Shown piece by piece: positions 40,300 through 64,000 of a stretch of 64,000 nt of DNA. Numbering within the stretch: the stretch's first letter is position 1; each line of letters opens with the position of its first letter. Position numbers and translations under genes: made by a program. This DNA comes from Alphaproteobacteria bacterium (GTDB lineage Bacteria > Pseudomonadota > Alphaproteobacteria > SP197): the NCBI GenBank assembly GCA_964291415.2, contig OZ219918.1, forward strand, positions 1,216,001 through 1,280,000. The letters are read 5' to 3'. The notes under the pieces were generated by a model. That model was not told the DNA's origin. It made no database searches and saw nothing but the letters and a program-made list of their open reading frames with translations.

Positions 40300-40586
40300 C
40301 CCCGGATCTCAAACGCCAGCGCACCGTGCACTGCGCGCCGGAGGACCAGGCGCTGATCCGCGAACAGGCGGCCAAGGCCGGCACGACGATCTCCGGCTAT
40401 CTTATCGACCTGGTCCACAACGACGACCCAATGATCCATTCCCTCGTGCTCTCGCCCGACCAGCAGAGGGAGGTGCTGGCCGCCGCCCGCCAGGTGAACG
40501 GCATCGTCCATGCGCTCAACGAGGAGCTCCCCGGCACCGGCGGCCCCGGCATCTTCGCCGCCCTGGCGCTGATGGCAGATAAGTGA
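40296..40586 (+). CDS. RHH/MobC-like protein 2
   Basis: GTG start overlaps the upstream TGA. RQRTVHCAPEDQALIREQAAKAGTTISGYLI. Confidence 0.65.
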   Translation: MTPDLKRQRTVHCAPEDQALIREQAAKAGTTISGYLIDLVHNDDPMIHSLVLSPDQQREVLAAARQVNGIVHALNEELPGTGGPGIFAALALMADK

Positions 40587-41074: not shown

Positions 41075-41257
41075 AGCCGCGCCGCAGGGATCCGGTTTGT
41101 CGACGGTATCCCGGAGTGCGGCCCCTGGCACGAGGTATCGACGGTCCGGTTGGACTCGCCCCGCCTTCGGGGAAGGCGAACCCGTCTGCGCCGCTTCGAA
41201 TGCGGCGCCAGCAAGCCGGGCAAGAGACCATCCACGGTCACCCTGCGACCGCCGCTC

Positions 41258-41913: not shown

Positions 41914-42088
41914 GCCTGGCCCCGCGGTGTGGGTCGTCGGAGCGACAGCCTACCACGGCTGCAGGCCCTGTTCGAAGGGAAGGATGGCGCGAAGCCATCA
42001 CGTGACACCCGTCGAGAGCCTGGCCCCGAAGCCCGGTCCGGGCCGCACCGAAGGACCGATTGCGGCTCCGTGACCTCCAGCCTCGGGG

Positions 42089-45000
42089 CTACATCGAGAA
42101 GCCCCGCGATCGTCCCCGCCGCCGGGCCTCGCTCTCGCGGAGAGCCTCGGCCATCCGTTCGGACCGCTCATCCTCGTCCTCCCAGGGCGCGCGGACGCAT
42201 CCGCGCATGAAGAGGGCCCGCATCTCCTGGCGGACCGTCGAACCGGCCGCGGGCGCCGCGTCCGTCCCCCAGGAGCGGATCACCCGCAGCGTCACCATGT
42301 CGGAGACCCGGTTGTTGATGGCGGGCTCGACGGCCTCGACGACGGCCTCGATGAGGGGCGTGTCGCCCCCCCTGGCGTCACGCCCGCCCGCCGGATCGCG
42401 TACCAACGTCCAGCGGACGCGGTCGCCCGGGAGGACCCCGTCCTCGCAGGTGAGCGGGAAGGACGCATCGGCCTCAGGGTACTGGCGCCCGCATTCGCGC
42501 CGCCGCACCTCCTCGTCGGGCCACAGCATGCGCCGGCAGGTGGCGTTGGCGGCAAGGGTCCTGATCGTCTCGTTGAAGAGGACGCGCGTTTCAATGCCGC
42601 CGACGGGCCGCAGGCGCAGGTGATCGATCGTGCCGGGACCGGAGACGTGGCCCACGATCTCGACGAGAGTGTCGTGCCGGCCCTCGCCGTCGCGCCAGGT
42701 CAGCCGGTCGCCGCGCAGCAGCGGTTCGGTGCCGTCCCAGCGGATGCTGCGCGACGTGTCGAACGGCGCGTCGCGCAGTCGCCGCACGGCGTCGTCAATC
42801 GCGAGAAGATGGCCGCTGCGGCGGCGCGCCTCGCGCACCGCGTCGTCGTCGGCTAGGCGCCCGCGGAGCGCCTCCAGGATACCGGCGATGCGCTCGGGCC
42901 CGGCGCCGGCCGCGCGGACGTGCGCCTCTGCCAGGGCATCCGCCGTCCCGGCGTTCAGCAGGGCCTCGGCCCGGCGGCGCCAGACGTCGGGAATGGGCCC
43001 GGCCCCCTCGAGGCGGGGTTCGAGCGCCAGCGCCTCGGCGACGATCCCGGCCACCCGGCGCCGGTCTCCGTCCCAGCCCTCGATGGCGTTGCGCCACCCG
43101 ATGACCTTGGTCCGTTCGTCCGCGCTCAGGCGCGGATCGTCGCCGAGCTGACCCAGAGCCGTGCGCAGCGGCGCCAGGTGGACTGAATCGAGAGCATGGA
43201 CGCCATTCTCCCGCACGTCCCGGTCGAGGGCGTGCGACCGCCTCACGAAGACCCTGCGGCTGTCGTCGAGGAGCGCCGCGTCGAGCCGCGCCGCCGTGTC
43301 CTGGACGGCCTCCACCGCACCCGCCATGTCGCCGGCAGGGAGGCCCGAGGCGCGCCACGCCCCGGGCAGGGCCCGGCCTTCGGCGATGAGCGCCGCAACG
43401 TCGCGGCGCCAGCCGGGATCACCGGGTTCCGGCGCCGCAGTGTCGTGCCGGTCGACGCGCTGCCGCCAGACCGCGAGCGCCTCGAGGGCGGCGACCGTTG
43501 CCAGCCAGGAGGGAACGGCAGCGATTCGTTGTTCAAGAGCGGCGGCGGTCTCGCCGAGTGCAGTGAGGTGCGCGTTGCGTTCGCTGTCGGGGATGGCATC
43601 CACCGCCGCCGCGACCGTCCGGGCAGCGGCGGGAGCCGCGGCGCGCCAGGCCGCGCGGTCCGACTCCCGGCCATCGGCGAACCGGGGCCGGTTCGCCTCA
43701 ATCTCCGCGAGGCGGGCGAGGGCGGCGCGGAGACGTTCGCGGTCTTGCTGCCGCCGTGCGTCGCTGACGAGATGCGCGGCGAGGACTTCCAGGACCGGCG
43801 TACCGCCGGCCTCGCGCTCGACCGTGCCCCGGACCTCGTCCAGGAGACCCGGCCAGCCGGGCATGTCGAGAGACAGCAGGGCCCGTTCCGCCGCCTGCCG
43901 TTCGGTCTCCTCGACTCGCCAGAGCAGTGCGCCGTGGTCAACCGCGCGCATCGCGGCGGCGGTTCGCCCGAGAGCCTCCTCGATCGCCGCCCGCGTCTTC
44001 GGCATGGACCGCAGGAAGGGAGCTTCGGGCGTCTCGCCCGTCAGCACCGCGCGGGCCTCCCGCATCCAGGCGTCCGCCTCGTCGCGCCAGCTGACGATCT
44101 CCGCGGCCGCCGGATCGGTTGAGGAGTCGCCCGGGGCCTGCGCCAGCAGTGCCTCGGCGCGCGCCGTCAGGGACTCGAGCCTGGCGACAAGCGCGGTCTC
44201 GGCCGCGTGTCGGGCCTGCCACGACGCCACCTGTCGTGCGTCCTCGCCGGTCAGGCTTCCGGCATCGGCAAGCCGCTCGCCCTCCGACACCAGCTGCGCG
44301 TAGCCTGCCAGGGCGGCGACCGGCACGCCTTCGGCGTCCGCGCGAGCCTCCAACGCCCGCCAGTCGCGGGCGAAGCGCCGGGCGTCGTCGATGAGCCGCA
44401 CTGCCCTGAGGCGCCGGCCGGCATTCGCAAGCGCCGTTCCGTCGGCGACGCTCCGCGCCGCCGCCTCCAGCAGCGCCGCCCCGCCCTCGCGCCACTGCCG
44501 CCACGCCGGCAACTCGTCGGCGGCGCAGGCCTTGGCCGACGCCGCCCAGTTGAGCTCCGGCCAGCGCCGGGCGTGGTCCAGGAGACCGTCGACAAGGCGG
44601 CGGACCTCGCGGTCGGCCGCGCGGACGGCTTCGTGCTCGTGAAGGCGCGCGTCGACGAAGGCCCGCATCTCGTGCGGCAGGTCCTCGATCGCCGCGAAGG
44701 CCGCCAGCCCTGCCATCGCCTCGGCGTAGCCCGGGACCGACGAGGGTTCGCGCCCGGTGCGCTCGGCCTGGTGGTGGACCGCCTCCCAGGCGGCGACGGC
44801 GTCGGCCCACGCGTCTGGGTCGACCACCGGAGCGTCGAAGTCCTCGCCCAGCGCCTCGAGGGCGACGTCGGGGACGTCGGGTGAGGTCTCCAGGCGCTCG
44901 ATCAGCGCCTCGCGGTCGTCGGTCAGCAGCGTGAACCCGTGCGAGGCCCGGCTCACCTCGACGTAGAACATCTCCTGGTCCGCCATGCCGCCGGCGTCGA

Positions 45001-47671
45001 GCACCGCGATGACTTTCTTCGCCGTTCGCCCCTGGGCGGCGTGAACGGTGGAGCTCCAGGCGTGGTCGAGGTGGCGCAGCTGCGGATCTGCCCGGGAGAA
45101 CGAGACCTCGATGCCGTCGGCCGCCATCATGCGCACCCGCCGCGGCCCGATCGACATGATGCGCATCTCCTCGCCGTTGACGCACCCCGGCTTCCCGCGG
45201 CGGGGTCTGCGGTTCCGCGTCCAGCGGATGCGGTCGCCCGCCCGGATCTCGATCTGGGCCGTCTCGTAGACGGAGAGGTTGCGAGCGGCGTTGCCCGAGG
45301 GCCTGAAGCGCCGTTCCCCGCCGTCGGCGCCGATGAGGACGACCATGCCGTCCTCGAGCCTTGAAACGGTGCACGTGTCATCGGCCATGCAGCCGTAGGC
45401 GTTGCGGTGGAAGACGACCGTGTCGCCGACTTCGTAGTTGCCTATCTCGGCGGCCTCGACGCGGGTATGGCGCCGGTCGATCAGGCGCTCGATCACGAGC
45501 GTGCGGCCCGACAGCCTGTCTTCCCCGGCGAGGCCCTCGCGGACGGCCTCGTTGATCTGCCGGCGGATGGCGTGGGTGGGAGCCAGCACCGCGCAGTCGT
45601 CCCTCTCGTCCACAGGCAAGGCGAGCCAGGCGTGAGCCGCTGCGGCCCCGAGATCCTCTCTCGCGTGCTCGATCACCCGGTTTGCGAGACGGGTCACGGC
45701 CTCGCCCGCTTCGCCCTCGCGGGCGTGTGCGACTGCTGCCTTGAGTTCCGGGTCCTTCTGGCGCAGCACTTCGTCCATCACCGCCGTCGTCATGCCGGCC
45801 TTCTGCATCAGCGCGAAGGGCTGGCCGGCGTCAACGGCCTTCAGCTGCGCCGTGTCGCCCACCAGCACCACCCGGGCGATTCCCAGATTGCCGGCGATGG
45901 CGAGCAGCCGCTCCATCTGCACCGTGCCGATCATCGAGGCCTCGTCGACCGCCAGGACGGTGCCGGCCAGCTCCTCCCGGGCCTGCGCCAGTCGTTCGGG
46001 CTCGAGATCGCCGTAGCGCACGAGGAACCACTGGAGTGTGCGTGTCGGAATGCCCGTCTCCCTGGCCAGCACCCGCGCCGCGGCCGTCGAGGGTGCAAGA
46101 CCTGTGAGAGAGTCTCTGCCGACGAGGTCCGCCACTGCGCGAAGCATCGTCGTCTTGCCAGACCCGGCGCGGCCCTGCACGCCGACGGTGCGGTCGCCCT
46201 CGCCGACGATGTGGCGCACCGCGTCCGCCTGGCCCGACGTCAGCGACGTCCCGGCAAGGCGCGTCGCGACCGTCTCCGGTTCGGCGAAGGCCTCGGCCAT
46301 CGCCCTGCCTTCCTTCACCATCTTGAGGATCCGTCGCTCCGCCTTCACCGCGCGGTCGGTGACGAACGAGCGGTCCGAGCCGCGCTGGACGGTCTCCACC
46401 AGTTCCCCGTCCGCCACCAGGCGTTCGATCGCCTGGTCGATTTCTTCCAGGCGATAGCGACCCGGCGCGTGGCCCAGCGCCAGCATGCGGATGTCGCGTT
46501 CCGGGATGATCGTGCGTCTCTCCTCGACGTGGGCGACCGCGCGGGCCACCGCCTCCAGGCACCCGGTCTCCGGCTCCGGGATCATCTCCGGCGGCGCAGC
46601 CGGCCGCCGCCTCGTTTCCAGCGGCGGCGCCTCCACCACCGGCGTGAGGTGAGGCACGGCCGGCGACCGGCGGCGACGGCGCCTTTCGTTCTTGGTTAGA
46701 TCCGCCTCCAGAGGCAGCGGCCGCGGCATCTCCTGGCCCGTTTCCGGATCGACCGGCCGCGGAGGGCTGAGCGCCGCCGGATCGCGGGCGAGGCCGAGGG
46801 CCCGGGCACGGTCCCGCCACTGAGGCACCAGTTCGGCCAGCCCTGCCTCCACCTTGCGCCGGCGCGTGTGGAGCGTCGCCTTCTGCGTCGCCTCCTTCGT
46901 ATGGGGAAGGCCGTGCTTCTCCAGGTAGGCCAGGATCTCGCGGCGCCGCCCGGAGAAGGCGTCGAGGAACGCCTTGTCGTAGCCCGCCAGCTCGAACCCC
47001 GGCACCGAACCCACCATGGTCGGCGTCACCGCCAACCTCAGCGCCTCCAGCCGCGCCGCCAGCCCGTTGCGGTAGTGCGCCCCGATCAGCCTCTCGCTCC
47101 TTCTGATGAGCGTCGGCTCGATGCTCTTCCAGGCGCCCTCACGGTCGCGCGTCATGTTCGCCAGGACGCAGTGGGTGTGGAGCTGTGGGTCGAGGTCGCG
47201 GCTGGTGAGGTGGCGAAAACCCGCCACCACCATGCCGTGGGCCTTCACCCGGGGACGCCGTTTCGTCGTTGGATCCCAGCCGCGGGTCTGCAGGAGGTCG
47301 CGCTCGATCCAGTCGAGCGTCGCGCGCACCGCCTCGTCATGGGCGCGGATGACCCGGGCATCGCCCATGACCAGCGCCTCCAGCGACACCGATTTTGGCG
47401 CCGACAACGTGATGTCCCAGCCAGGGCGGTGCTGCCGCGTGCCCTCGACGAGGCGGCCCAGGCGGATATCGCTCTTCGGCACCTTGCCTGAGAGCACCGA
47501 TTCGAAGCGCGACGGCACCACGTGGCCCCTGAGGTTGAGAGCCGCCGCCGCGGTGCCGTGCCAGAAGCTCGCCTTCCTGTGCTCCGGGTCGTTCTTCGCG
47601 TAGTAGCCGTCCTTCTCGAAGTACGACACCGCCGTCGCCGTCGAGGCCAGCTCGTGGACCGTCGCCACCAT
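42089..47671 (-). CDS. MobF (TrwC/TraI-type) relaxase-helicase with long C-terminal extension
   Basis: YFEKDGYY tyrosines, DITLSAPKSVS, HLTSRDLDPQLHTH (3H motif), GRAGSGKT, DEAS, STVHAAQG. Confidence 0.93.
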   Translation of the reverse strand: MVATVHELASTATAVSYFEKDGYYAKNDPEHRKASFWHGTAAAALNLRGHVVPSRFESVLSGKVPKSDIRLGRLVEGTRQHRPGWDITLSAPKSVSLEALVMGDARVIRAHDEAVRATLDWIERDLLQTRGWDPTTKRRPRVKAHGMVVAGFRHLTSRDLDPQLHTHCVLANMTRDREGAWKSIEPTLIRRSERLIGAHYRNGLAARLEALRLAVTPTMVGSVPGFELAGYDKAFLDAFSGRRREILAYLEKHGLPHTKEATQKATLHTRRRKVEAGLAELVPQWRDRARALGLARDPAALSPPRPVDPETGQEMPRPLPLEADLTKNERRRRRRSPAVPHLTPVVEAPPLETRRRPAAPPEMIPEPETGCLEAVARAVAHVEERRTIIPERDIRMLALGHAPGRYRLEEIDQAIERLVADGELVETVQRGSDRSFVTDRAVKAERRILKMVKEGRAMAEAFAEPETVATRLAGTSLTSGQADAVRHIVGEGDRTVGVQGRAGSGKTTMLRAVADLVGRDSLTGLAPSTAAARVLARETGIPTRTLQWFLVRYGDLEPERLAQAREELAGTVLAVDEASMIGTVQMERLLAIAGNLGIARVVLVGDTAQLKAVDAGQPFALMQKAGMTTAVMDEVLRQKDPELKAAVAHAREGEAGEAVTRLANRVIEHAREDLGAAAAHAWLALPVDERDDCAVLAPTHAIRRQINEAVREGLAGEDRLSGRTLVIERLIDRRHTRVEAAEIGNYEVGDTVVFHRNAYGCMADDTCTVSRLEDGMVVLIGADGGERRFRPSGNAARNLSVYETAQIEIRAGDRIRWTRNRRPRRGKPGCVNGEEMRIMSIGPRRVRMMAADGIEVSFSRADPQLRHLDHAWSSTVHAAQGRTAKKVIAVLDAGGMADQEMFYVEVSRASHGFTLLTDDREALIERLETSPDVPDVALEALGEDFDAPVVDPDAWADAVAAWEAVHHQAERTGREPSSVPGYAEAMAGLAAFAAIEDLPHEMRAFVDARLHEHEAVRAADREVRRLVDGLLDHARRWPELNWAASAKACAADELPAWRQWREGGAALLEAAARSVADGTALANAGRRLRAVRLIDDARRFARDWRALEARADAEGVPVAALAGYAQLVSEGERLADAGSLTGEDARQVASWQARHAAETALVARLESLTARAEALLAQAPGDSSTDPAAAEIVSWRDEADAWMREARAVLTGETPEAPFLRSMPKTRAAIEEALGRTAAAMRAVDHGALLWRVEETERQAAERALLSLDMPGWPGLLDEVRGTVEREAGGTPVLEVLAAHLVSDARRQQDRERLRAALARLAEIEANRPRFADGRESDRAAWRAAAPAAARTVAAAVDAIPDSERNAHLTALGETAAALEQRIAAVPSWLATVAALEALAVWRQRVDRHDTAAPEPGDPGWRRDVAALIAEGRALPGAWRASGLPAGDMAGAVEAVQDTAARLDAALLDDSRRVFVRRSHALDRDVRENGVHALDSVHLAPLRTALGQLGDDPRLSADERTKVIGWRNAIEGWDGDRRRVAGIVAEALALEPRLEGAGPIPDVWRRRAEALLNAGTADALAEAHVRAAGAGPERIAGILEALRGRLADDDAVREARRRSGHLLAIDDAVRRLRDAPFDTSRSIRWDGTEPLLRGDRLTWRDGEGRHDTLVEIVGHVSGPGTIDHLRLRPVGGIETRVLFNETIRTLAANATCRRMLWPDEEVRRRECGRQYPEADASFPLTCEDGVLPGDRVRWTLVRDPAGGRDARGGDTPLIEAVVEAVEPAINNRVSDMVTLRVIRSWGTDAAPAAGSTVRQEMRALFMRGCVRAPWEDEDERSERMAEALRESEARRRGRSRGFSM

Positions 47672-47677
47672 AGCCCG

Positions 47678-48442
47678 CTACCCCTGCGTTGCCGCCGGCA
47701 GTGGCCAGGGCATCAACCCCGTCGCAGGGCGCGCGAATTGACCCGCAGACCCGTCAAGGTGCTGGATCACGAAGCCGGTCATCATGCCGGCAGAGAACGT
47801 GAAGCCGAGGAGGAGGGGGATGGCACTCGTGTGAAGCCGGAAATCGGTCCTGTGCTGCGCCAGCGCCTGTTCGAAGCGCCCGAGCCGCGCGGCGAGCGAG
47901 GCCGTTCCCTTCACGAGGTCGCCCAGCGTCCGTGTCTGGCCGGTCCGCGCCTGGCGCGCGTGCTCGCTGTGCGCCGCCAGGCGCAGTGCGGCGACGGGGG
48001 CCGTGACGGCATCAGTCATGGCACCGAGGCGGTGGTCGTGCTGCTCGCGCGTGCGGGCTACCCTGTCGAGCGTGCCGCCCTGGGCCTTGAGGTCGGCGCG
48101 GATGCCCGCAGCGCGCGTCGCCCCGGCCGCATCGAGTTCGGTGCCGGGACCGGTGACGGCCACCGGGATCCGCCGTACCGAGGCTGTCGGTTCCACGTGC
48201 CGCGCCGAAGCGTCGCGCCCGGCAGCGTCGATCCGCCCCGAAAGACGGCCAGGCGCGTCGATGCAGGCCTGCAACGTCGCCGGTTGGTTTGCCGTTGCCT
48301 GATGTTGTGCTGCGCATTCGCCGGCGATGAGAGTCGTGAAGCCGGCGACCGCGGCCAGGAGCGCGCCGAGCGTCTCCCGGTCGGCGACCGCCAGGCGCTG
48401 TGCGGGTTCAAGCGGGCGAAGAAGGTCCCTTCTTTCTGTCAT
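47678..48442 (-). CDS. hypothetical coiled-coil protein with C-terminal TM helix, upstream of the relaxase
   Basis: ORF with GGAG RBS, ends 6 bp before the relaxase ATG, TM segment AIPLLLGFTFSAGMMTGFVI. Confidence 0.55.
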   Translation of the reverse strand: MTERRDLLRPLEPAQRLAVADRETLGALLAAVAGFTTLIAGECAAQHQATANQPATLQACIDAPGRLSGRIDAAGRDASARHVEPTASVRRIPVAVTGPGTELDAAGATRAAGIRADLKAQGGTLDRVARTREQHDHRLGAMTDAVTAPVAALRLAAHSEHARQARTGQTRTLGDLVKGTASLAARLGRFEQALAQHRTDFRLHTSAIPLLLGFTFSAGMMTGFVIQHLDGSAGQFARPATGLMPWPLPAATQG

Positions 48443-51252: not shown

Positions 51253-51645
51253 GTGTTCGTGCAGAATCTGAATGAGCGCCAACAGGGCGTCTTGCTTCAC
51301 TACGCCGATGAAGTGATGCGCGTGGATCACAAGATCGACGCTGCGGAACTGTTGGCGATGGACATGCTCCGAAATCAGACGGAGCCCGGTGTGAAAGCCG
51401 AGGATGTGGCGATCGAAGCGCTGCCAGGACTGTTCGAGGACAGACTGAGCCGCGTGTCCTTCCTTCTGGAACTGGTTGGCATGGGCTATGCCAACACGGA
51501 CTTCCATCCCGAACAGTCGGAACTCATCACCCAGATCGCACGCGTGTTCGGCCTCCACGAGAACGGCACGAAAGAAGCCGTCGAACAATGGGTGAAGGAC
51601 GAGATTGCCCTGATGAATAAGGCCCGGCAGTTGATGGAGGGCTGA
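51253..51645 (+). CDS. TerB-like protein
   Basis: MFVQNLNERQQ start and two TerB-like helix-loop motifs (VDHKIDAAE, ANTDFHPEQ..LI..IA..FGL). GGAGA RBS. Confidence 0.65.
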   Translation: MFVQNLNERQQGVLLHYADEVMRVDHKIDAAELLAMDMLRNQTEPGVKAEDVAIEALPGLFEDRLSRVSFLLELVGMGYANTDFHPEQSELITQIARVFGLHENGTKEAVEQWVKDEIALMNKARQLMEG

Positions 51646-51648
51646 AGG

Positions 51649-53235
51649 ATGCCTCTGCCACTTGTCCTGATAGGCGCAGCGGTGGCCGCAGGCGTTGCCA
51701 TCGGTATTGCCACCGCAGACGACAACGATGACGATGACATCAAGTCGCGCAATCGAGGACGGTCTGACTCGCGAAGAAGCCGCATGCCGCCCCGGGACGG
51801 TTCACGCTTGTCGCGCGAGGAAGTGGCGGGGGTCAGTGCGGGGGTGGCCGGTAGCGGAACGAACTATGCCGACAACGTCAGGTTCGGGGCCCAGCACGGT
51901 CATGGAGTCGCTGCCGAGAAAGCCAATCACCTCTTTGACACATTTACCGGCAAGGATGCCCGGGTCGTGGGTGGCGATAACGCGAAGGGCGGTCCGGATC
52001 GCATTGTCGGCGGCATCGAAATACAGACCAAATACTGCAGTAGTGGTGTGAAATGCATAGCTGAGTGCTTTGAAGGCGGCGAGTTTAGATATTTTGGTGG
52101 TGACGGTTCGCCCATGCAGATCGAGGTTCCCAGCGATATGTATGAAGGGGCCGTCAAAGCGATGGAAGGTCGCATCGCGAAGGGCCAGGTGAGCGGCGTT
52201 TCAGATCCAGCAAAGGCCAGGGAGATCGTACGCAAGGGACAATTCACCTATGCCCAAGCGAAGAACATTGCCCGTTTCGGCACGATCGAAAGCCTGACCT
52301 ACGATACGGTGAACGGCGTGAAGCTGGCCGCGCAAGCGATGGGTGTTTCCGCCGCGCTGTCGTTTGCGGTTTCGATTTGGAACGGCGAGGATCCCGAAAC
52401 GGCGTTGAGGCAGGCATGTGTAACGGGCATCAAGGTGGGAGGGATCGCCTGGGCTGGCAGCATCCTTGCGGCACAACTTGGCAGAACGGGAGTTGAGCAG
52501 ACACTTAGAGGAACCACTGACTGGGTTGTCAAGCAGATTGGGCCGAAGGCGGCCGCTACAGTAGCCAATGCTCTGCGGTCCGGCACATCGATCCACGGAG
52601 CCGCGGCGATTAACCATGTCAGTAAGCTGCTACGGGGGAACATCGTCACGGGAATCGCGACAACGGCAATCCTGTCCTCGGTTGACTTCGCTCGCATGTT
52701 CCAAGGAAGGATGTCGGGTGCCCAGCTGTTCAAGAACGTTGCCACAACCGCTTCGGGTGTCGCCGGCGGTACTGCGGGTTGGATGGCAGGCACCGCCATG
52801 GGCGCAGCCATCGGATCAGTTGTGCCTGGTGTCGGGACGGTCTTTGGCGGAGCTATCGGCGCCTTCGCAGGCGCGTTTGCGGGAGGGGCGGCAACATCGA
52901 AAGTGGTGACGGCTGTTCTGGATGAATTCATCGAAGACGATGCAAAAGAGATGCTGAAGATTGTTGAGAAGACCTTCGGGATCCTGTGCGTCGACTACCT
53001 GCTGAACGAGAAGGAAGCGCTTGCTGTCCTCGAAGAACTACAGAAGTTGGATCTGCCTGTCACTTTGAGGGATCTGTATGCATCGAATGATCGGAATGTC
53101 CACGCGCGCAGTGTTCTTGAACCGCTCGTGGAGGAACAGGTCAGAGCTAGAAAACGCATATTGCTTCCATCGAGCAACGACCTGGCGAAGCAAACCGGAG
53201 TCATCTTGCAGCAGGCGGCCGAAGCCGAACGTTGA
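51649..53235 (+). CDS. YeeR-like membrane protein: PD-(D/E)xK-like domain plus glycine-zipper helices
   Basis: GHGVAAEKANH...DNAKGGPDRIVGGIEIQTKYC...PMQIEVPSD closely resembles the E. coli YeeR C-terminal region (from recall). Long Gly/Ala hydrophobic helices follow. Confidence 0.65.
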   Translation: MPLPLVLIGAAVAAGVAIGIATADDNDDDDIKSRNRGRSDSRRSRMPPRDGSRLSREEVAGVSAGVAGSGTNYADNVRFGAQHGHGVAAEKANHLFDTFTGKDARVVGGDNAKGGPDRIVGGIEIQTKYCSSGVKCIAECFEGGEFRYFGGDGSPMQIEVPSDMYEGAVKAMEGRIAKGQVSGVSDPAKAREIVRKGQFTYAQAKNIARFGTIESLTYDTVNGVKLAAQAMGVSAALSFAVSIWNGEDPETALRQACVTGIKVGGIAWAGSILAAQLGRTGVEQTLRGTTDWVVKQIGPKAAATVANALRSGTSIHGAAAINHVSKLLRGNIVTGIATTAILSSVDFARMFQGRMSGAQLFKNVATTASGVAGGTAGWMAGTAMGAAIGSVVPGVGTVFGGAIGAFAGAFAGGAATSKVVTAVLDEFIEDDAKEMLKIVEKTFGILCVDYLLNEKEALAVLEELQKLDLPVTLRDLYASNDRNVHARSVLEPLVEEQVRARKRILLPSSNDLAKQTGVILQQAAEAER

Positions 53236-55563: not shown

Positions 55564-56010
55564 GTGACGGTGGAGTATCGGTGGCACCCCTTTCACGGGC
55601 GTCGCCTCCATGCCCGCAACGCCGGCCGTCGCGACGGAATCCTCCTTCTCGTTGACGGGGACCCGCACACGTCCCGCAAGGTGCCTGACTGGATGTGCGA
55701 TCCCGCCATCTGCCAAGCAATGACGCTGGGTCCACCGCTGGTTCGGCTCGACGCACTGTCCGAACTGTCGGCGGCCCTGGTGAGCCTGTTGCCGGGCGGA
55801 ACAGGCCCGTCATCATCGGCCTCCCCCCGGAAGGAGAATGCCGATGAAGTCACCGACGTCACGACCACGAACCCAACTCCGGTTGAGCCTGGAACCGCCG
55901 GTACCGGCGGCGCCGCGATCGGCGGCGCTGATGCGGGCTCTGGCGGATCTTCTGCTCGAAGCCCTGGATCCGGAGACCGTCACGACCGAGCCAAGGGAGG
56001 CGATCGATGA
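55564..56010 (+). CDS. small accessory protein (Y4bD/DUF5372-like, YRWHPFHG and VP.WM motifs)
   Basis: VEYRWHPFHGR...VPDWMCD...LDALSELSAAL is typical of ORFs preceding this recombinase class. Its C-terminal tail overlaps a second small ORF. Confidence 0.5.
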   Translation: MTVEYRWHPFHGRRLHARNAGRRDGILLLVDGDPHTSRKVPDWMCDPAICQAMTLGPPLVRLDALSELSAALVSLLPGGTGPSSSASPRKENADEVTDVTTTNPTPVEPGTAGTGGAAIGGADAGSGGSSARSPGSGDRHDRAKGGDR

Positions 56011-56029
56011 ACTCCAAGATCACGTCTGA
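55844..56029 (+). CDS. small accessory ORF upstream of the recombinase
   Basis: AAGGAG RBS and sequence QLRLSL...LMRALADLLLEA. Confidence 0.45.
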   Translation: MKSPTSRPRTQLRLSLEPPVPAAPRSAALMRALADLLLEALDPETVTTEPREAIDELQDHV

Positions 56030-58091
56030 GCATCTTTGCCGCGGCGCCACCGTCTACATCCGCCAGTCCACGCCGGTGCAGGTGCTGGAGAACACCGAGA
56101 GCCAGAGGCGGCAATACGGGCTGGTGGATTCGGCCAAGGCCGCTGGATTCGCGTCGGTGACGGTGATCGACGACGATCTTGGCCGTTCTGGCTCCGGGGT
56201 GGCGGACCGTCCCGGGTTCCAGAAGCTGGCCGCCGCGGTGTGTGCCGGATCGGTCGGCGCGGTGTTCTGCATTGAGGCGTCCAGGCTCGCCCGCAATGGC
56301 CGGGACTGGCATCATCTGATCGACCTGTGCGCACTGGCCGGCGCACTGGTCATTGATCCGGACGGGACCTACGATCCGCGCCTGATCAACGACCGGCTAT
56401 TGCTCGGGCTGAAGGGGACGATGTCGGAGTATGAGCTGAGCCTGCTGCGCCAGCGCGGCCTCGCCGCCCGGGACGCCAAGGCCGGGCGCGGCGAGCTTCG
56501 GTTCACCCTGCCGCCGGGCTATTGCTGGGCCGAGAACGGGCGCATCGAGATCGACCCCGACGAGCGCGTGGCGGACGCGATCCGTCTGGTGTTCGAGAAG
56601 TTCCGGGAACTCGGCAGCTCGCGCCAGGTGTATCTATGGTTCCTGGCTGCCGGGCTGAGCCTGCCGGTGGTGCGGCGCAACTCCGTCGCGCGCCATATCG
56701 AGTGGCGGTCGGCGGCCTACCACACGGTGCGCCAGATTCTGAAGAGCCCGATCTATGCCGGGGCCTACGCCTTCGGGCGGACCGCGGGGCGAACCCGGAT
56801 CGTGGACGGGCGGGCTCGGAAGACCGAGGGGCACAAGCGCCCGATTACTGACTGGAGGGTGCTGCTGCGCGACAACCACGAGGGCTACATCACCTGGGAG
56901 CGTTTCGAGGAGAACCAGAGGACGCTGCTTGAGAATGCTCACATGAAGAAGCGTGCCTCGCGAAAGTCGGGCCGGGGCGGCCGGGCCCTGTTGACCGGCC
57001 TGGCGCGCTGCGGGCGCTGCGGGCGCATGATGCGGGTGTTCTACCAGGGCCGGTCGAATCATCCGTATCGCTACCAGTGCCGGGGAGACTCCAACGGCGC
57101 AGGTCTGTGCAATGGCATCGGCGGGTTGCGTATCGACCGCGCTGTCGCCGCGTGCATTCTGGATGCGGTCTCGCCGCACGCTGTGGAGGCGGCAATGCAG
57201 GCGGCCGAGCAAGCTGACCGGGCAGCGGTCGAGCGCCGGCGCGCCGTGGAGCGCGAGCTTGAGGAGGCCGAGTACGAAGCCTCGCTCGCGGCCCGGCGCT
57301 ACGAGCTGGTCGATCCCGCCAAGCGGCACGTCGCGCGGGAGCTGGAGGCGCGGTGGAACACCGCGCTTGAGCGCGTCGAGCAGATCGCGCAACGCCTGGT
57401 CGGCCTGGACGCCGAGCGGGCGTCGCGTCCCTCGATCGATCGGGCGGCGCTGATGGATCTGGCGCAGGATCTTCCCGCGGTGTGGAACGCGCCGACGACG
57501 AGTGCGGGGGCGAAGCAGCGTTTGATCCGTACCCTGATCGAGGAAGTGGTGATCGGCCTGGATGATGAGGCCAACGAGGCGGTCCTGACGATCCACTGGG
57601 TGGGCGGGCGCCACAGCGAGACGCGGGTCCCGCGGAGGAGGACCGGCGGATATCCGTCCGACCGCAAGCCCGATCCGGTCGAGGTCATGTGCAAGCTTGG
57701 CGGTTGCTTCCCCGACCGCGATCTTGCGGTGACGATGAACAGAATGCGATGCAGGACCGAAGACGGCGGCACCTGGACGATGGTACGAGTCCGCGAGCTC
57801 CGGGAGCGCTTGGGTATCGCCGCGTTCGATCCGGCGACGTCAGGTCCCGAGACGATTAGCGCCCAAGAGACGGCACATCGCCTTGGGATCTACATCACCT
57901 CGGTCCATCAACTCATCCGCGAAGGCACGTTGCCGGCGAGACAACTCATGCCATCGGCTCCGTGGCAGATCCCGGTCGAAGCACTCGAAAGCGAGGCGGT
58001 TCGGATAGGCGTGCGAGAAATCATTGCGCGCCGTCCCGGCAATACCACGCAATTACAAAATCTTAACATTCCCAGGCTGCCGGGGATCTAA
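56007..58091 (+). CDS. large serine recombinase
   Basis: YIRQST (catalytic Ser), [17 protein letters not shown], Zn ribbon CGRCG, coiled coil, C-terminal HTH. Confidence 0.93.
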
Positions 58092-60636: not shown

Positions 60637-61731
60637 CTAGTCCAACCGAAAAACGTCATTGTCGAGGTCGTCAACCGCCTGCCTTCGCTGTTCCCGGGCC
60701 TGTCGGGCTGCACCGACGAGTTCGACCGAGCGCTTCACCTCGCCGACGCAGCGCATGGCGTCGTCATAACCCTGCTCGATCCAGGAGTGAATATCCGCCG
60801 AAAAGTTGAACATATCCCGCTTCTCGCCCGCAAAGCCTTCCTTTCGCCTCATTGTGCGGCCCGGTCGGATTTCAAGGACGACCGTGTTCGGAAACCTGTT
60901 CCGCGGCCAGGGCGAACCTTCGGACGAATGGGTGACAATAAGGTGGGTGCAACCGGCGTGCTCGACCAGAGGTTCGGCCGGAGTGTTCCCCTGCCTCGTG
61001 CGGTAGCCGCCCAACACGCCGTCCACAAACCGCCGGTTATCCGGCCCGAGCCTGCGGGCCTGCAACACGATCGGCATGGCAGCCGAGGCCAGGATTGTCG
61101 CTTTGCGTTCATCACGCGGAAGCGACTGGATGTGGCGGAATTCGGACGGCGGCGTGTCCCACAACTCCAGCAGCATGCCACCAAGAGCAAGCGAGTCGGT
61201 CAACATCTCCTCACTCGCGAAGATCGACACGTAGAGGGGCAGCCCTTCTCCCTTCAGAAGAAGCTTCATGCCGCGATCGAGCATTTTCTCAAGTGATGCC
61301 GCGTCCGCCAGTTCAAGAGAGAGAAAACCAACCTTCCTGAGCGCTGCGGCAAGAACAGCTGCAACATCTACAGCCTTTGCATATCGGGGGTCCTCTTCAT
61401 ACCGAGGATGATTGCGAGCCCGCCCCAGAATCATGGGCAGGCCTACCCCGAGGACGAACTTGCCTGGTTGCCACTCGAGCGGGCTGTTTCCGATCAGCCT
61501 GGTCCAGAGTTCCTCCAGTTCGATCGCTGCTTTCTTCAAGTCGCCGTTGGCTTCGGAAACCACGACGCCATTCATCGCGCCTGCGCTGGCCCCGGCCACC
61601 GCATGGACATGGACATCGAGTTCGGCCAGCGCCTTGACGACGCCCGCCTGATAGGCGGCCGAGGCCCCGCCGCCGGACAACACCAACCCGACTCTGGCTT
61701 CCTTCGAATTCAACGCGATCTCCTTCGTCAC
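60637..61731 (-). CDS. patatin-like phospholipase
   Basis: LVLSGGGA, GASAG nucleophile elbow, ASAAMP, FVDG. Confidence 0.9.
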   Translation of the reverse strand: MTKEIALNSKEARVGLVLSGGGASAAYQAGVVKALAELDVHVHAVAGASAGAMNGVVVSEANGDLKKAAIELEELWTRLIGNSPLEWQPGKFVLGVGLPMILGRARNHPRYEEDPRYAKAVDVAAVLAAALRKVGFLSLELADAASLEKMLDRGMKLLLKGEGLPLYVSIFASEEMLTDSLALGGMLLELWDTPPSEFRHIQSLPRDERKATILASAAMPIVLQARRLGPDNRRFVDGVLGGYRTRQGNTPAEPLVEHAGCTHLIVTHSSEGSPWPRNRFPNTVVLEIRPGRTMRRKEGFAGEKRDMFNFSADIHSWIEQGYDDAMRCVGEVKRSVELVGAARQAREQRRQAVDDLDNDVFRLD

Positions 61732-62738
61732 CGTGTCGCTCCGTCCCGGTTGAGCCTTTCAGTTGCGATGCGCCGAACCGTTTCCCGCAGGGCCATCTCG
61801 CCCAGATAGAACGGCTGAACCAGCCGTGGCCGGTTTCGGGGCAATTCCTCCTTGGAATCCTGAAGGCGCATCCGGGCAGAGACGGCCAGCGGCCGATCGC
61901 CCGGCGATGCGTCGGCCAGAAGATATGCAATGGCATCTCGCCAATCCGTCGGAAGAGCCGCGTCCCTCAACGGAGCCAGCCAGAGATCGACGATGACGGA
62001 CTCCCGCTCCTCCCCGACAGCAAAGACGTCGGCCATGTTTCCCAGCACATTCCGTGCATTGTCAATCAAGCCCCAAGCATCCCTGTCGTCCGGGCCCTTC
62101 AGACGCAGGAACGCGCCGAATTCGTTCCAATAGAGGTCGTTGGCAGCCAGCAGCACTCGCAACAATGGAGGAACCGCCTTGAATCTGTTACTCAGCAATC
62201 GCTCCTTCGCAGCGGCAACGGAAGTCCAGGCCCGACCTTCTAATTTCTGATCTGCCAGGTCCTGTTGCAGGTCCGAAAGCCGGTGTTCCGTGGATTCGAT
62301 ATGGTTCGCAAGCCTCTGGTCGAGTTCCTCAACCTCGGTCCTCAATTCCTGGTGCCGCTCCTGGAGCTTCATCACGCCCTGGCGAGTCTCCAGAAGCCGT
62401 TTCGCAACACGAGCCAGGGCAATGTCCGATTCCGCCTGCGCCGCCTGGAGTCCGTGCAGCCATTCGTTCATGTTGCGCAGCACGCCTCGTGTTCCGCTGT
62501 CTATGCCTTGCTGCCGCCGCGCCGAGGTCCCGGTCACGAGATCCCAGGCCCGTCCTAGGAAGGATCCCGGGTTTTCGTCTCTGAACCTGAGATGATCGTC
62601 CACGACCTCCAGGCCGTTGACGACGTCCACAACTGCCTTCTCCCGCACCTTTGGGAAGTCGGCGAGTACTCCCAACGACAGTGGTCCTGCCGGAAGGTCA
62701 CCGCGATTCATTGCCGCATTCTCCCGCACTATCGTCAT
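61728..62738 (-). CDS. YjcZ/RdcB-like protein
   Basis: VVDVVNG, central coiled coil, NDLYWNEFGAFLR and C-terminal PRL resemble E. coli YjcZ (from recall). 4-bp overlaps with both neighbours. Confidence 0.65.
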   Translation of the reverse strand: MTIVRENAAMNRGDLPAGPLSLGVLADFPKVREKAVVDVVNGLEVVDDHLRFRDENPGSFLGRAWDLVTGTSARRQQGIDSGTRGVLRNMNEWLHGLQAAQAESDIALARVAKRLLETRQGVMKLQERHQELRTEVEELDQRLANHIESTEHRLSDLQQDLADQKLEGRAWTSVAAAKERLLSNRFKAVPPLLRVLLAANDLYWNEFGAFLRLKGPDDRDAWGLIDNARNVLGNMADVFAVGEERESVIVDLWLAPLRDAALPTDWRDAIAYLLADASPGDRPLAVSARMRLQDSKEELPRNRPRLVQPFYLGEMALRETVRRIATERLNRDGATR

Positions 62739-64000
62739 CGGACACTGAGAAGGCGACCCGCTGCCTTCTCGAAGTCCCCCACATTCGCACGGCTGTCACC
62801 AGCCTCTTCTTCCATCCTCCTTATGGCTGTGAGAAAATGCGCCTTGCGCTCTCGCTTCATCCTGCGTTCGCTCAACCCATCGACCAGACTCTGGTGATAC
62901 CCGTCCAGGAGCCTCAGAACGATGGTGAAACTGTCATCGACATGCTGCTTCCAGTCGTCAATACTAGCCTCCGCACGTTTGCGATAGCTCTCCAAAGTAT
63001 CGGTCACGCCCTTCTTGAGGGACGCGATGACGTCATTGCGATAAATCACATATACGACTTTCGTATGGTGGACCTCTCGTTTGCCCCACCCGAATGCGTC
63101 AAAGGGATCCAAGAAATTCGCTAGCTCGTGTGTCACCACCGTCCTTGGCCGTGACTTTCGTCTTTCCCTTTCCCGTTGAAAAGCAATATCGGCTGGCTTG
63201 GCGCAATCCTTGCCCGGATCAAAGTGCGGGACCTGAAGACTCAATTCGAAGCCACCATCGCCCAAAGCGCGACGAGCAGCCTCCAACGCATCGGCCACAC
63301 CAGTGTCCACCTTGCGTGCCAGATCGACATGGGTGCTGTCCATGAGTGCGCTAATCGATGAAGAAGCGTCCTTCACAATCTGATCTGCTAGCTTTAGGTA
63401 GACTTTCTTGATCCTATTGCATGCATTGCGCCAACACTCTTCGTTGTCGTATTCCAGTTTCCCATCCTCGAATTGCTCTATAAGGTCCTCCGGGTTCACA
63501 ATGCCAGAGTTGGTGGATCGCCTTGTGTTGGATGGTACATCGATCAATCGTCTTTCGTTCTGGATATCTTCGATAAACGTGCGGATGTTTTTTGTACTAG
63601 TCTTGTTGTTTGCGTTGCGCAGGATATTGTCTAACTTCTCGCTGAGGTCCTGCATGGTCGAAGTGAGCCATGCGTCAAGGTCGCATCTTGCCTTCTTGGT
63701 GGCCTGGCTACACTCCTCCATGCTCTGAATGGTTTGCTCCAGATTCGCCCTGTCAATGGTCAAAGACCCGGTGAACAGTTTCAAGTGATGTTCAATATCG
63801 TTGCCGTACTGTTTCAATTTTGTCAAAGCGGATTGAAGGGCGAGTTCGCCGGCCCGCCGCTGCGCGGCCACAACGACACCATCAAGCAGAGGCTGGAATC
63901 TACTTTCGCACCAAAGATGATTTGCCACTTGCTCGACCTGCGCCAAATCCTGGAGCCATGTATCGTCACCACGGACATTTAGCTTGCCAAAGTCAGCGAC
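62735..64000 (-). CDS. CrfC/RdcA(YjdA)-like dynamin-family protein, C-terminal helical part (5' end outside window)
   Basis: Frame is open to the window edge. VADF...ANHLWCESRF...ALQSALTKLKQY resembles the post-GTPase region of CrfC (from recall). The GTPase domain is not visible. Confidence 0.6.
   Translation of the reverse strand, partial: VADFGKLNVRGDDTWLQDLAQVEQVANHLWCESRFQPLLDGVVVAAQRRAGELALQSALTKLKQYGNDIEHHLKLFTGSLTIDRANLEQTIQSMEECSQATKKARCDLDAWLTSTMQDLSEKLDNILRNANNKTSTKNIRTFIEDIQNERRLIDVPSNTRRSTNSGIVNPEDLIEQFEDGKLEYDNEECWRNACNRIKKVYLKLADQIVKDASSSISALMDSTHVDLARKVDTGVADALEAARRALGDGGFELSLQVPHFDPGKDCAKPADIAFQRERERRKSRPRTVVTHELANFLDPFDAFGWGKREVHHTKVVYVIYRNDVIASLKKGVTDTLESYRKRAEASIDDWKQHVDDSFTIVLRLLDGYHQSLVDGLSERRMKRERKAHFLTAIRRMEEEAGDSRANVGDFEKAAGRLLSVR

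Follow-up and report, generated by a model that had tools for sequence, protein, structure and literature searches.

The closest characterised relative of the operon described here is the RdcA-RdcB pair of E. coli (YjdA/CrfC-YjcZ), a growth-phase GTP sensor that controls an enzyme. According to the published accounts, RdcA relocates to the membrane when it lacks GTP, RdcB is its constitutive binding partner, and the effector is activated by the C-terminal domain of RdcA (PMC13463826, PMC6510439). Dynamin-superfamily GTPases are also found in Eleos (LeoA + LeoBC), where the P-loop was required for defence in the tested system, and DynA, the dynamin-like protein of Bacillus subtilis, has been implicated in membrane-level resistance to phages. 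CapV is a patatin effector of CBASS, according to PMC13069673.

An operon that joins a CrfC-like GTPase gene, a YjcZ-like gene and a patatin gene (the trio) has already been remarked on. A 2026 paper calls the E. coli form a "putative defense system" from expression data only, reports these operons as strongly up-regulated in lysogens and lying beside EcoKI and Druantia, proposes RdcB and the lipase as regulators of the dynamin, and finds core RdcAB to be ∼30% identical to the island copies (PMC12922286). RefSeq routinely annotates the same genes, with 4-bp overlaps, as 'dynamin family protein', 'diguanylate cyclase regulator RdcB family protein' and 'patatin-like phospholipase family protein'. 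The initial annotation of the present locus, which knew of no such characterised system, holds in that we found no functional study and no phage-protection experiment in the literature, where the supplements of the NAR 2026 screen and the DefensePredictor candidate lists could hold the operon; it was anticipated in that the combination stands in print as a putative defence system. The words 'dynamin', 'RdcB' and 'YjcZ' do not occur in the accessible text of the NAR 2026 domain-centric screen, and its one 'patatin' is the CBASS effector.

The locus lies at the end of a 64,000-nucleotide stretch of an alphaproteobacterial contig, OZ219918.1 (the window). The features are as follows.

62735-64000, minus strand: CrfC/RdcA-family dynamin-like GTPase gene, C-terminal 421 codons (ORF open at the window end)
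62738-62735, minus strand: ATGA overlap of the CrfC-like stop and the YjcZ-like start
61728-62738, minus strand: YjcZ/RdcB-family protein, 336 aa (ORF and Pfam PF13990)
61731-61728, minus strand: GTGA overlap of the YjcZ-like stop and the patatin start
60637-61731, minus strand: patatin-like phospholipase, 364 aa (ORF and Pfam PF01734)

The gene identities first proposed were borne out by matches to NCBIfam CrfC and to Pfam Dynamin_N, YjcZ and Patatin. Translational coupling stands as far as the GTGA and ATGA overlaps go, although as assembled the operon consists of two intact genes and a frame-broken third. The region is partly lower in GC, as had been noted (0.51-0.53 at 63000-64000 against 0.646 for the genome), and its mobile setting is evident from a TrwC relaxase, IS66 copies, a serine recombinase and an integrase fragment around the trio. 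The relaxase adjoins the trio both here and in G019, a genome of the same genus, and in both genomes an XRE-HTH+M78 protein (CapP/RmrA-like) lies beside it. A promoter and terminator scan of the locus gave nothing reliable above shuffled expectation.

The initial annotation named the absence of a dynamin GTPase domain upstream as a point of refutation. The domain is present, with a Dynamin_N score of 41.7 bits in the N-terminal fragment, and extension of the contig recovered the P-loop, albeit in another frame from the main ORF. This ORF of 626 aa (window-equivalent 62735-64615) holds G3 (DLPG) and G4 (NKFD) without G1 or G2; the GxxxxGKS/T P-loop and the G2 threonine are found beyond the window end, on an ORF of 162 aa that is read in a different frame, and the first ∼26 GTPase codons are in the third frame, with the 5' end reaching up to window-equivalent ∼65104. 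The NCBIfam CrfC profile (NF007368) is matched at positions 177-661 by the 626-aa ORF (5.2e-57) and at 56-168 by the out-of-frame P-loop fragment (6.6e-28). These frame pieces score 193.6 and 97.4 bits, far short of the equivalog cut-off of 1146 bits, and by sequence the gene seems to be a member of the CrfC family and not an equivalog of E. coli CrfC. With Dynamin_N (cut-off 27 bits) the P-loop fragment is above threshold and the 626-aa ORF, at 23.4 bits, below it, whereas intact homologs score 45.9-70. The only match to a solved dynamin structure found by sequence was the G domain of Nostoc BDLP (E 1.1e-4).

In G019 the GTPase is an intact ORF of 838 aa that carries G1-G4 in one polypeptide, an arrangement missing from the present assembly, which has three single-base insertions relative to G019, at window-equivalent ∼65029, ∼64944 and ∼64562, all of them 165-632 bp from an inversion breakpoint. 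Given these three 1-nt insertions so close to the breakpoint, the GTPase copy in this genome is either inactive or locally mis-assembled. We lean slightly towards mis-assembly, in which case the organism's gene is intact and G1-G4 would be united here too. Comparison with the closed genome G013 shows three of 76 long orthologs to be split in frame in this assembly as well, each through a +1 insertion; all six indels are insertions, none lies in a long homopolymer, and the pattern resembles a consensus error mode. The sites lie near the inversion breakpoint, at which the sequenced population may have been mixed; together the three shifts amount to +3, and the remaining ∼1,326 codons of the operon are open. 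If the insertions are instead real, the gene is a pseudogene, and for this speaks the clustering of three breaks in ∼470 bp, where ∼0.013 would be expected from a background of ∼1 per 35 kb. IS and integrase debris surround the locus, and the GTPase gene has decayed naturally elsewhere, in loci L113, L150, L178 and L120. In E. coli strain 144, the CDS at the dynamin position, overlapping the RdcB start, is annotated as an N-terminally truncated pseudogene; RdcB and the patatin are intact beside that pseudogene, named 'hypothetical protein'. Programmed frameshifting and another genetic code were rejected on the grounds that the homologs are single one-frame ORFs and that, compared with G019, each break is simply one added nucleotide.

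The other two genes are intact in the window. The YjcZ-like protein matches PF13990 with 61.3 bits (1.2e-16; cut-off 27), and this score, together with its place directly after a CrfC-family gene with an ATGA overlap, assigns it to the YjcZ/RdcB family. It is predicted to be all-helical, with a helix of ∼110 residues followed by a C-terminal helical bundle (AlphaFold2 pLDDT 80.8, pTM 0.60). The model found no significant solved fold in a Foldseek search of the PDB (best E 0.19), a wide VIA-align search returned generic coiled coils and one SlmA-type bundle at Z ≤ 7.5, the noise level for helical models, and in a sequence search no PDB entry reached an E below 0.3.

The patatin scores 69.9 bits against PF01734 (4.3e-19; cut-off 27.7). 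Its motifs, which had been described as intact, are so: alignments of 16 and of 47 family members show no variation in the GGG loop (G20-G22), G47-x-S49-x-G51 or D237-G238, and the Gly-rich oxyanion loop and the Ser/Asp dyad, with the Pfam score, place the protein among the patatin-like phospholipases. It belongs to a dedicated subfamily with a conserved C-terminal extension, HxxxGSxWxR...EIRP...WIEQGYxD. Among solved chains the nearest is PlpD (5fqu, E 2.5e-6), matched over the N-terminal 73 residues only. The N terminus shows weak similarity to both PlpD and VipD.

Conservation of the three genes together was a further point on which the initial reading could have fallen, and it is what we observed. 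All three are present in 55 of 56 evaluable metagenomic loci, defined as those with at least 3.5 kb upstream of the patatin, and in five of six evaluable named genomes. Fifty-one of the 56 have an intact-looking CrfC-like, YjcZ-like and patatin gene in that order on one strand, four have a split or partial CrfC-like gene, and one retains only a YjcZ remnant and the patatin; the metagenomic loci correspond to 62 clusters at 90% patatin identity. The first HMM missed the variable C-terminal halves of the CrfC-like genes in L167, L190 and L178, which BLASTP found, and a 449-aa upstream ORF in L127 had no match by either method. A chance adjacency of the patatin was rejected on this conservation in 55 of 56 loci. 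Across 57 trios, G1 (GxVKAGKST), G2 (T103), G3 (DLxG), G4 (NxFD) and the patatin Ser and Asp are each at least 95% conserved, which indicates selection on both enzymes. A segment in the C-terminal half of the GTPase (aa ∼451-600) is fast-evolving, evidently so even between close pairs.

The trio is a conserved, horizontally mobile three-gene module. Several phyla carry it, the order is the same in Methylococcaceae, Pseudanabaenaceae, Pseudomonas, Anabaena, Amphritea and G019, and its environments include free-living cyanobacteria, methanotrophs and marine and soil metagenomes. Thirty-six enterobacterial and Aliarcobacter plasmid records bear it, conjugative plasmids of Klebsiella and Enterobacter being among the carriers, and one copy on an IncF plasmid is IS-flanked. 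At ≥80% coverage of the 4.35-kb trio, 2,443 of 5,426 complete E. coli genomes (45%) have it. Its place in E. coli is in tRNA-Asn islands; K-12 has an equivalent island without the operon. Around the present organism it is accessory, occurring in one of 22 other genomes of the genus, and the YjcZ family is above cut-off in four of 401 genomes of the phylum. A phage-borne origin was rejected: 2.9 million viral contigs yielded a single locus, at a contig edge, and 50,697 phage records yielded no copy.

Comparison with the described systems places the trio nearest to RdcA-RdcB, with which it has in common the two protein families, the gene order, the overlapping genes, and the G1 Lys and G2 Thr at identical positions (K82, T103). 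Both lack a membrane anchor and have an adaptor partner, and in both the C-terminal domain of the GTPase appears to address an effector enzyme. The trio differs in that its operon encodes a patatin, whereas the classic pairs have none downstream (L106-L108), and in being mobile, accessory and outside the flagellar regulon. It is not the RdcAB-DgcE signalling system, for a MASE1 diguanylate cyclase partner is missing: PF05231 had no match in the window genome, which is 100% complete by markers, and the E. coli control was positive. The E. coli operon of PMC12922286 is, by RefSeq annotation, of the identical type; for strain ST131, as distinct from the paper's MP1 loci, identity to the window proteins is 38% for the patatin, 26% for YjcZ and 36% for the GTPase. 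A quick RdcB tree (root unknown) places the classic RdcB clade together with enterobacterial proteins of the trio type (SH-aLRT 99), within the broader diversity of trio sequences.

The likeness to Eleos lies in a dynamin-superfamily GTPase found beside defence systems, yet Eleos lacks YjcZ and patatin genes and is built from two consecutive dynamin-like genes, against one GTPase gene in the trio. PADLOC matches do not make it Eleos (LeoBC at 6.7e-4 for the window part; in G019, LeoBC at 3.7e-10 and LeoA at 1.1e-5), and L006, L008 and L010 gave no LeoA or LeoBC match at 1e-5. No PADLOC system model matches the trio as a system, and the matches of the GTPase are only these distant ones. CBASS with CapV shares a patatin-fold phospholipase as the presumed membrane-degrading, cell-killing output, but activation of the trio would come via protein partners and not a cyclic nucleotide. 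The locus is not CBASS, since neither Pfam nor PADLOC found a CD-NTase cyclase in the scanned ORFs upstream and downstream. The window patatin matched no PADLOC model at E ≤ 1, nor did the patatins of G019 (E ≤ 0.01) and L010 (E ≤ 1e-5); the Pseudomonas homolog alone matches the CBASS phospholipase model, weakly (6.6e-6, N-terminal 64 residues). DynA, in contrast, is a two-headed housekeeping protein that guards membrane integrity and delays lysis, and the lipase of the trio would damage the membrane.

In a PADLOC scan of the genomic neighbourhood at E ≤ 1e-15, 14 of 30 non-redundant loci had clear defence systems in their flanks, as did two or three of 14 random control windows, the controls being from a single genome of another taxon and 'clear defence' being classed by the analyst's judgement. 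This agrees with the expected enrichment in defence islands, which at locus level is modest (Fisher p = 0.037 with 2/14 controls, p = 0.10 with 3/14); by ORF, 66 of 235 flanking ORFs had a PADLOC match against 11 of 119 control ORFs, counts that are not independent. As a conserved operon enriched, with modest statistics, beside known defence genes, the trio is a candidate defence system in the operational sense. The flanking systems are RM types I, III, IIG and IV, Zorya I and II, JukAB, Mza, PDC-M09, NERD helicases, DruE-like proteins and DUF262, and in Amphritea the trio stands between Zorya II and a DruE-like helicase. A WYL protein is found in 11 of the 30 loci, directly upstream in seven, and both WYL and XRE-HTH+M78 regulators are typical of defence systems. 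Five of the 30 loci (L113, L118, L160, L166 and L167) have no PADLOC neighbours, and the Anabaena trio has housekeeping flanks only. The candidate defence system first proposed gains support from defence neighbours, regulators and carriage on ICEs, plasmids and islands. The proposal is weaker on the GTPase gene, which is frame-broken in this assembly, and on the description as a membrane sensor: neither the GTPase nor the adaptor showed a transmembrane segment, a paddle or any other membrane-binding element, and the relative in E. coli senses the GTP level as a soluble protein.

The trio is most likely an anti-phage system of the abortive-infection type, or a similar conflict system, acting by a GTPase-controlled phospholipase switch, a reading to which we give about an even chance. 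By analogy with RdcA/RdcB-DgcE of E. coli we infer a standing complex of GTPase and adaptor that would be cytosolic and inactive while GTP is bound. A drop in GTP or cell energy, or a cue at the fast-evolving C-terminal domain, would send the complex to the inner membrane, where this domain would engage the patatin in place of DgcE; the patatin would then hydrolyse membrane phospholipids, and the cell would be killed or arrested. The same proteins might instead serve physiology, the GTPase and adaptor sensing GTP/(p)ppGpp or energy and controlling a phospholipase for the remodelling or recycling of membrane lipids under stress or in stationary phase. The role of RdcA-RdcB itself suggests as much, for a defence system, 45% of complete E. 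coli genomes is a high occurrence, and the Anabaena flanks and the five loci without defence neighbours point the same way. We nevertheless consider this unlikely, given the patchy accessory distribution within genus and phylum, the carriage on ICEs, plasmids and IS-flanked islands, the enriched defence neighbours, the frequent WYL regulators and the fast evolution of the sensor domain.

That the trio is always on mobile or island DNA, in E. coli beside a CbeA/CbtA toxin-antitoxin pair and antirestriction genes, would also fit an addiction or stabilisation module in which the GTPase and adaptor restrain a patatin toxin that is freed when the element is lost. The decay of GTPase genes cuts both ways here: the patatin and YjcZ remain intact when it happens, but an intact patatin beside a decayed GTPase gene, as in strain 144 and possibly in the window, argues against the GTPase as a required antitoxin. 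No labile-antitoxin feature is known, the reading overlaps with abortive infection and is compatible with it, and we regard it as improbable. Least probable is a virulence or secretion module, with a LeoA-like dynamin driving vesicle release and the patatin acting on host cells. The distant LeoA/LeoBC similarity, the pathogenicity-type island location in E. coli and the weak patatin likeness to PlpD and VipD are what suggest it; yet carriers include free-living cyanobacteria, methanotrophs and marine and soil metagenomes, no secretion system or signal was seen beside the trio, and the Leo operon has itself been re-read as defence.

The copy in the window is itself of lesser value, being broken or mis-assembled and of an operon type already remarked on in print. 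Taking the defence reading further, we tentatively suggest that the trio may be a new class of abortive infection, in which a soluble dynamin-like GTP or energy sensor, with a diversifying C-terminal domain that possibly reads phage cues, would carry a phospholipase to the inner membrane, and of which RdcAB-DgcE may be a domesticated descendant that lost the lipase and gained the cyclase. If the defence model is true, this would also suggest that a known c-di-GMP control system arose from a conflict module, and a housekeeping-style nucleotide sensor (RdcA/RdcB) joined to a membrane-destroying effector would be an immune module missing from current defence catalogues. It would represent a new sensing principle in bacterial immunity, a fall in GTP or energy or a conformational switch of a dynamin, and thousands of genes that now bear no more than the labels 'dynamin family', 'RdcB family' or 'patatin-like' would gain a function.

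The last 3.4 kb of the window carry three ORFs, all on the minus strand, that form the following trio.

60637-61731, minus strand, patatin ORF (364 aa; Pfam Patatin 69.9 bits, cut-off 27.7)
61728-61731, minus strand, overlap of YjcZ-like stop and patatin start, GTGA, in the junction ...CGGTGACG...
61728-62738, minus strand, YjcZ-like ORF (336 aa; Pfam YjcZ 61.3 bits, cut-off 27)
62735-62738, minus strand, overlap of GTPase stop and YjcZ-like start, ATGA, in the junction ...CGATGACG...
62735-64000, minus strand, C-terminal part of the GTPase-gene ORF, open at the window end

The GTGA and ATGA junctions give a 4-bp stop/start overlap in both cases, so the coupled arrangement described in the initial annotation is present. 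The patatin likewise has the intact catalytic motifs ascribed to it, with its GGG loop, G47-x-S49-x-G51 and D237-G238 invariant in alignments with 16 and with 47 relatives, and the locally reduced GC is found at 63000-64000 (0.51-0.53 versus 0.646 for the genome), the patatin and YjcZ-like genes standing at 0.612 and 0.609. A Pfam search with the in-window part of the third ORF gave no significant match.

The window occupies C2:1216001-1280000 of its genome, G000 (5 contigs, 4.44 Mb). Sequence past the window end (window-equivalent numbering, beyond 64000) extends the third ORF to 626 aa (62735-64615). It had been proposed that extending the contig would recover the GTPase P-loop; the motif GTVKAGKST is indeed found, in a separate 162-aa ORF in a different frame, and is absent from the 626-aa ORF, with the first ∼26 codons lying in the third frame. 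The NCBIfam CrfC model matches both the P-loop fragment (profile 56-168, 6.6e-28) and the 626-aa ORF (profile 177-661, 5.2e-57), and the P-loop fragment alone passes the Pfam Dynamin_N cut-off (41.7 bits), identifying the upstream gene as a dynamin-like GTPase gene. In the same-genus genome G019 the ortholog is intact: its ORF spans 838 aa, or 805 aa counted from the probable start, and YjcZ-like and patatin genes come after it. Protein and DNA alignments against this ortholog locate three single-base insertions in the window genome, which has no second copy of the GTPase gene.

Window-equivalent ∼65029, insertion 1, after CTGCAG
Window-equivalent ∼64944, insertion 2, after GAGGAG
Window-equivalent ∼64562, insertion 3, within ACCG-GTG

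The mobile-island setting noted in the initial annotation was borne out by Pfam searches on the surrounding ORFs, which returned a NikA-like protein, a TrwC relaxase, an IS66 transposase and IS66 fragments, a large serine recombinase and an integrase N-terminal fragment. The NikA-like protein, the 1,860-aa TrwC-type relaxase/helicase and a 254-aa partner (39961-48442) are colinear with G019, and the island is either an integrative conjugative element or one derived from a plasmid. A synteny map shows a ∼14-kb block bearing the trio (∼51238-65194) to be inverted relative to G019, with breakpoints near 48524/51238 and 65194/66162. The breakpoint at ∼65194 precedes the start of the GTPase gene by about 90 bp, and the three insertions therefore lie 165-632 bp away from it. 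Inside the block are an IS66 copy, the 694-aa large serine recombinase (56007-58091) and IS/integrase fragments; the recombinase or IS66 copies could have mediated the inversion. The block also holds a lower-GC two-gene cassette.

51253-51645, plus strand, first cassette gene (130 aa)
51649-53235, plus strand, second cassette gene (528 aa)

Neither cassette protein has a Pfam match in the window. The first part of the cassette also adjoins the trio in G019, where it encodes a 131-aa protein with a weak TerB match, and the pair may represent a further cargo module carried by this element.

We lean slightly towards reading the three frame breaks as an assembly artefact and not a pseudogene. As a proxy for frame errors, we mapped 92 long ORFs of high GC3, drawn from 20 stretches of 20 kb in G013, a closed genome of the same genus, onto the window genome, where 83 were matched; 7 of these, below 55% identity, were set aside, and the remaining 76 comprised 72 single-piece, 1 partial and 3 frame-split ORFs, each split being a +1 single-base insertion relative to G013.

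Contig C1, ∼601884-601894, frame split
Contig C4, ∼305463-305479, frame split
Contig C2, ∼620283-620293, frame split

Consensus errors of the insertion type seem to occur in this assembly about once every 35 kb of coding sequence. That all six indels seen, three in the GTPase gene and three in the proxy set, are insertions suggests a consensus error mode, and a consensus of poor local quality, where the structure is heterogeneous, would fit; however, the background rate predicts only ∼0.013 events in 470 bp, versus the three seen. Real decay of the GTPase gene also fits, and natural decay of this gene is known elsewhere: in 4 of 56 metagenomic loci (L113 degenerate, L150 and L178 split, L120 with a YjcZ remnant only) and in E. 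coli strain 144 (L195 11214-13935). In the latter, beside intact RdcB-family and patatin genes, an unnamed CDS ("hypothetical protein") at the position of the dynamin gene in ST131 overlaps the RdcB start and is annotated as an N-truncated pseudogene of 753 bp. Under the artefact reading or under decay, the window trio is a genuine family member, locally damaged or mis-assembled.

The patatin falls in a distinct subfamily whose members are ∼350 aa long, with 221 relatives at E ≤ 1e-3 among 8,000 candidates scored. In species-representative genomes, full-length members numbered 7 among the 80 loci listed; in 5 of these 7, from Methylococcaceae, Pseudanabaenaceae, Pseudomonas, Anabaena and Amphritea, Dynamin_N and YjcZ genes lie directly upstream in the same order, the other two being a Synergistaceae patatin alone and a locus at a contig edge. 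A metagenome scan with the subfamily-specific C-terminal half of the patatin gave 80 listed loci (62 clusters at 90% patatin identity), which were scored with HMMs built from confirmed trios. Upstream sequence of 3.5 kb or more was available for 56 loci, the other 24 being cut by contig ends; an intact-looking trio was present in 51 of the 56 (L173 included), the GTPase gene was split, partial or duplicated in 4, and 1 had a YjcZ remnant and patatin only. The trio is thus conserved together; the initial annotation had named a lack of such conservation as a refutation. Apparent exceptions at L167, L190 and L178 proved to be divergent GTPase C-terminal halves, and in L154 (2215-6363) the full GTPase gene is preceded by an additional N-terminal half-copy. 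L127 is the sole locus with an unmatched upstream ORF: there, in an island with PDC-M09 and Zorya II, an unrelated 449-aa ORF without family match (520-1866) replaces the GTPase C-terminal half. Some subfamily members carry an N-terminal extension of ∼200 aa, as in a 545-aa ORF of a Verrucomicrobiaceae MAG (L011:10-1647) and in the 521-aa protein P0027, which combines PF27050 with Patatin. These N-extended patatins may represent a fusion that does without the GTPase pair.

The trio is accessory in the window's genus (1 of 22 other genomes), and the YjcZ family exceeds its cut-off in just 4 of 401 same-phylum genomes, 3 of them with classic enterobacterial CrfC+YjcZ pairs and no patatin downstream. 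The patatin occurs on 36 plasmid records (Klebsiella 19, Enterobacter 8, Escherichia 7, Aliarcobacter 2), 19 of them conjugative. On an E. coli IncF plasmid the trio lies between IS5 and IS30 with 4-bp overlaps in the RefSeq annotation, where the genes are labeled "dynamin family protein," "diguanylate cyclase regulator RdcB family protein," and "patatin-like phospholipase family protein." A search of complete E. coli genomes with a 4,354-bp trio query shows that 2,443 of the 5,426 have a chromosomal version at 80% coverage or more, at as many as 5 places in one genome; this version resides in tRNA-Asn-type islands beside DUF932, antirestriction, YeeS, YeeT and CbeA/CbtA genes, and the equivalent K-12 island, CP4-44, is without it. 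The strain 144 trio is a natural parallel to the state of the window's GTPase gene. Phage collections gave 1 locus among viral contigs and 0 phage records. The trio type is common in enterobacteria and already annotated there.

Across 57 trios the G1 (G76xVKAGKST84), G2 (T103), G3 (D239LxG) and G4 (N303xFD) motifs and the patatin Ser and Asp are each at least 95% conserved. The GTPase is least conserved at aa ∼476-675, and close pairs also diverge most at aa ∼451-600 (0.68-0.88, versus 0.92-0.98 in N-terminal bins, for L179/L181; 0.34-0.57 for the window and G019), this variable region also being the low-GC stretch where nucleotide similarity to G019 is absent. No consistent transmembrane segment was found in the GTPase or adaptor, and the patatin is moderately hydrophobic around aa 85-100. 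The YjcZ-like protein is predicted (pLDDT 80.8) to consist entirely of helices, among them one of ∼110 residues and a bundle; sequence and structure searches gave no informative solved relative.

Flanking ORFs of at least 150 aa (235 from 30 non-redundant loci) were scanned with PADLOC at E ≤ 1e-15, giving matches for 66, and 14 of the 30 loci have clear defence systems by our own classification.

Defence genes flanking the trio, by locus
L114, L174: NERD helicase
L124: type IIG RM, DruE-like helicase, GajB-like helicase
L127: PDC-M09AB, Zorya II
L136: type I methyltransferase, type IV restriction enzyme
L152: type III RM, DUF262, DrmD-like helicase
L169: IetA, PDC-S68
L173: two DUF262 genes
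L179: JukAB
L180: type I RM, PDC-M48B, Zorya I
L181: JukAB, type III RM
L185: ZorAB-like
L187: NERD/UvrD helicase, type I RM, RmuC
L189: methyltransferase, MzaBCE

Five of the 30 loci had no PADLOC match in their flanks at this threshold. In 14 random 14-kb control windows of one genome, G013, the same pipeline matched 11 of 119 ORFs and gave clear defence in 2 windows (CBASS; an AbiE pair), perhaps a third. Enrichment of defence neighbors held across ORFs, which are not independent (Fisher, p = 1.9e-5), and by locus at p = 0.037, weakening to p = 0.10 with the third control window counted. Among named genomes, Amphritea has ZorA2/B2/E2 (E down to 2.7e-188) on one side of the trio and a DruE-like helicase on the other, and the Pseudomonas trio has a DUF262 gene at a distance of 5.6 kb. 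In two loci unrelated to each other (L010:8232-14720 and L124:9859-16299) the patatin is directly followed by a DruE-like helicase of ∼2,150 aa (DEAD + MZB). Druantia is also reported from the E. coli island bearing the trio, and the pairing could be recurrent. A conflict or defence role for the trio has reasonable, though indirect, support.

A WYL regulator is found in 11 of the 30 loci, immediately upstream of the GTPase gene in 7 (L114, L129, L143, L148, L152, L170, L187) and elsewhere at the locus in L119, L136, L151 and L169; all four WYL-type regulators checked have WYL, WCX or HTH domains by Pfam. This suggests a facultative fourth gene encoding a WYL-domain (HTH-WYL-WCX) regulator, which may be of the BrxR/CapW type. 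In its place the window genome and G019 have nearby an XRE-HTH + M78 (IrrE/ImmA-type) peptidase fusion with RmrA/CapP/CapH-like PADLOC matches, encoded upstream of the trio on the same, minus strand (window-equivalent 66338-67489 = L002:8338-9489; also L085:14597-15709), and a candidate for a regulator that responds to stress or phage. Between this gene and the trio lies a 280-aa ORF with a weak PDC-M09A match.

PADLOC matched the trio proteins themselves to no system beyond distant LeoA/LeoBC matches and one weak CBASS-lipase match. Unlike Eleos, the trio has a single GTPase gene and only those distant LeoA/LeoBC matches, and unlike CBASS it has no cyclase among the neighboring ORFs scanned, ruling out both identities. 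The RdcAB-DgcE system is also ruled out, since the trio adds a lipase gene, has no MASE1 partner in the window genome and scores far below the CrfC equivalog cut-off. Two islands of E. coli MP1 are reported to bear this operon type, which is strongly up-regulated in lysogens and adjoins EcoKI and Druantia; the authors label it a putative defence system and found no literature linking phospholipases to bacterial dynamins (PMC12922286). No functional test of the trio was found in the literature searched.

According to two studies, E. coli RdcA binds RdcB, its nucleotide state governs activation of the membrane enzyme DgcE, and K82A complements, whereas T103D fails to (PMC6510439); GTP-free RdcA moves to the membrane, taking constitutively bound RdcB along, RdcA binds and activates DgcE through its C-terminal domain, and (p)ppGpp is a competitor of GTP (PMC13463826). 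Because the trio GTPase retains K82 and T103, the trio encodes its own effector, and no MASE1 protein is found in the window genome, we infer, at every step by analogy, that the GTPase and adaptor would gate the patatin at the inner membrane. The trigger might be a fall in GTP or energy, or an infection cue sensed by the variable C-terminal domain, and the outcome would be membrane damage by the patatin.

In a quick, unrooted maximum-likelihood tree of 52 YjcZ/RdcB proteins, for which the careful search is unfinished, the three classic RdcB proteins form a clade of their own (SH-aLRT 99), which joins trio-type proteins of enterobacteria (99) within the wider trio diversity. This nesting hints, with three classic sequences and no root, that the classic RdcA/RdcB pair may derive from a trio-type ancestor. 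The trio is a widespread, uncharacterised RdcA/RdcB variant with a phospholipase output.
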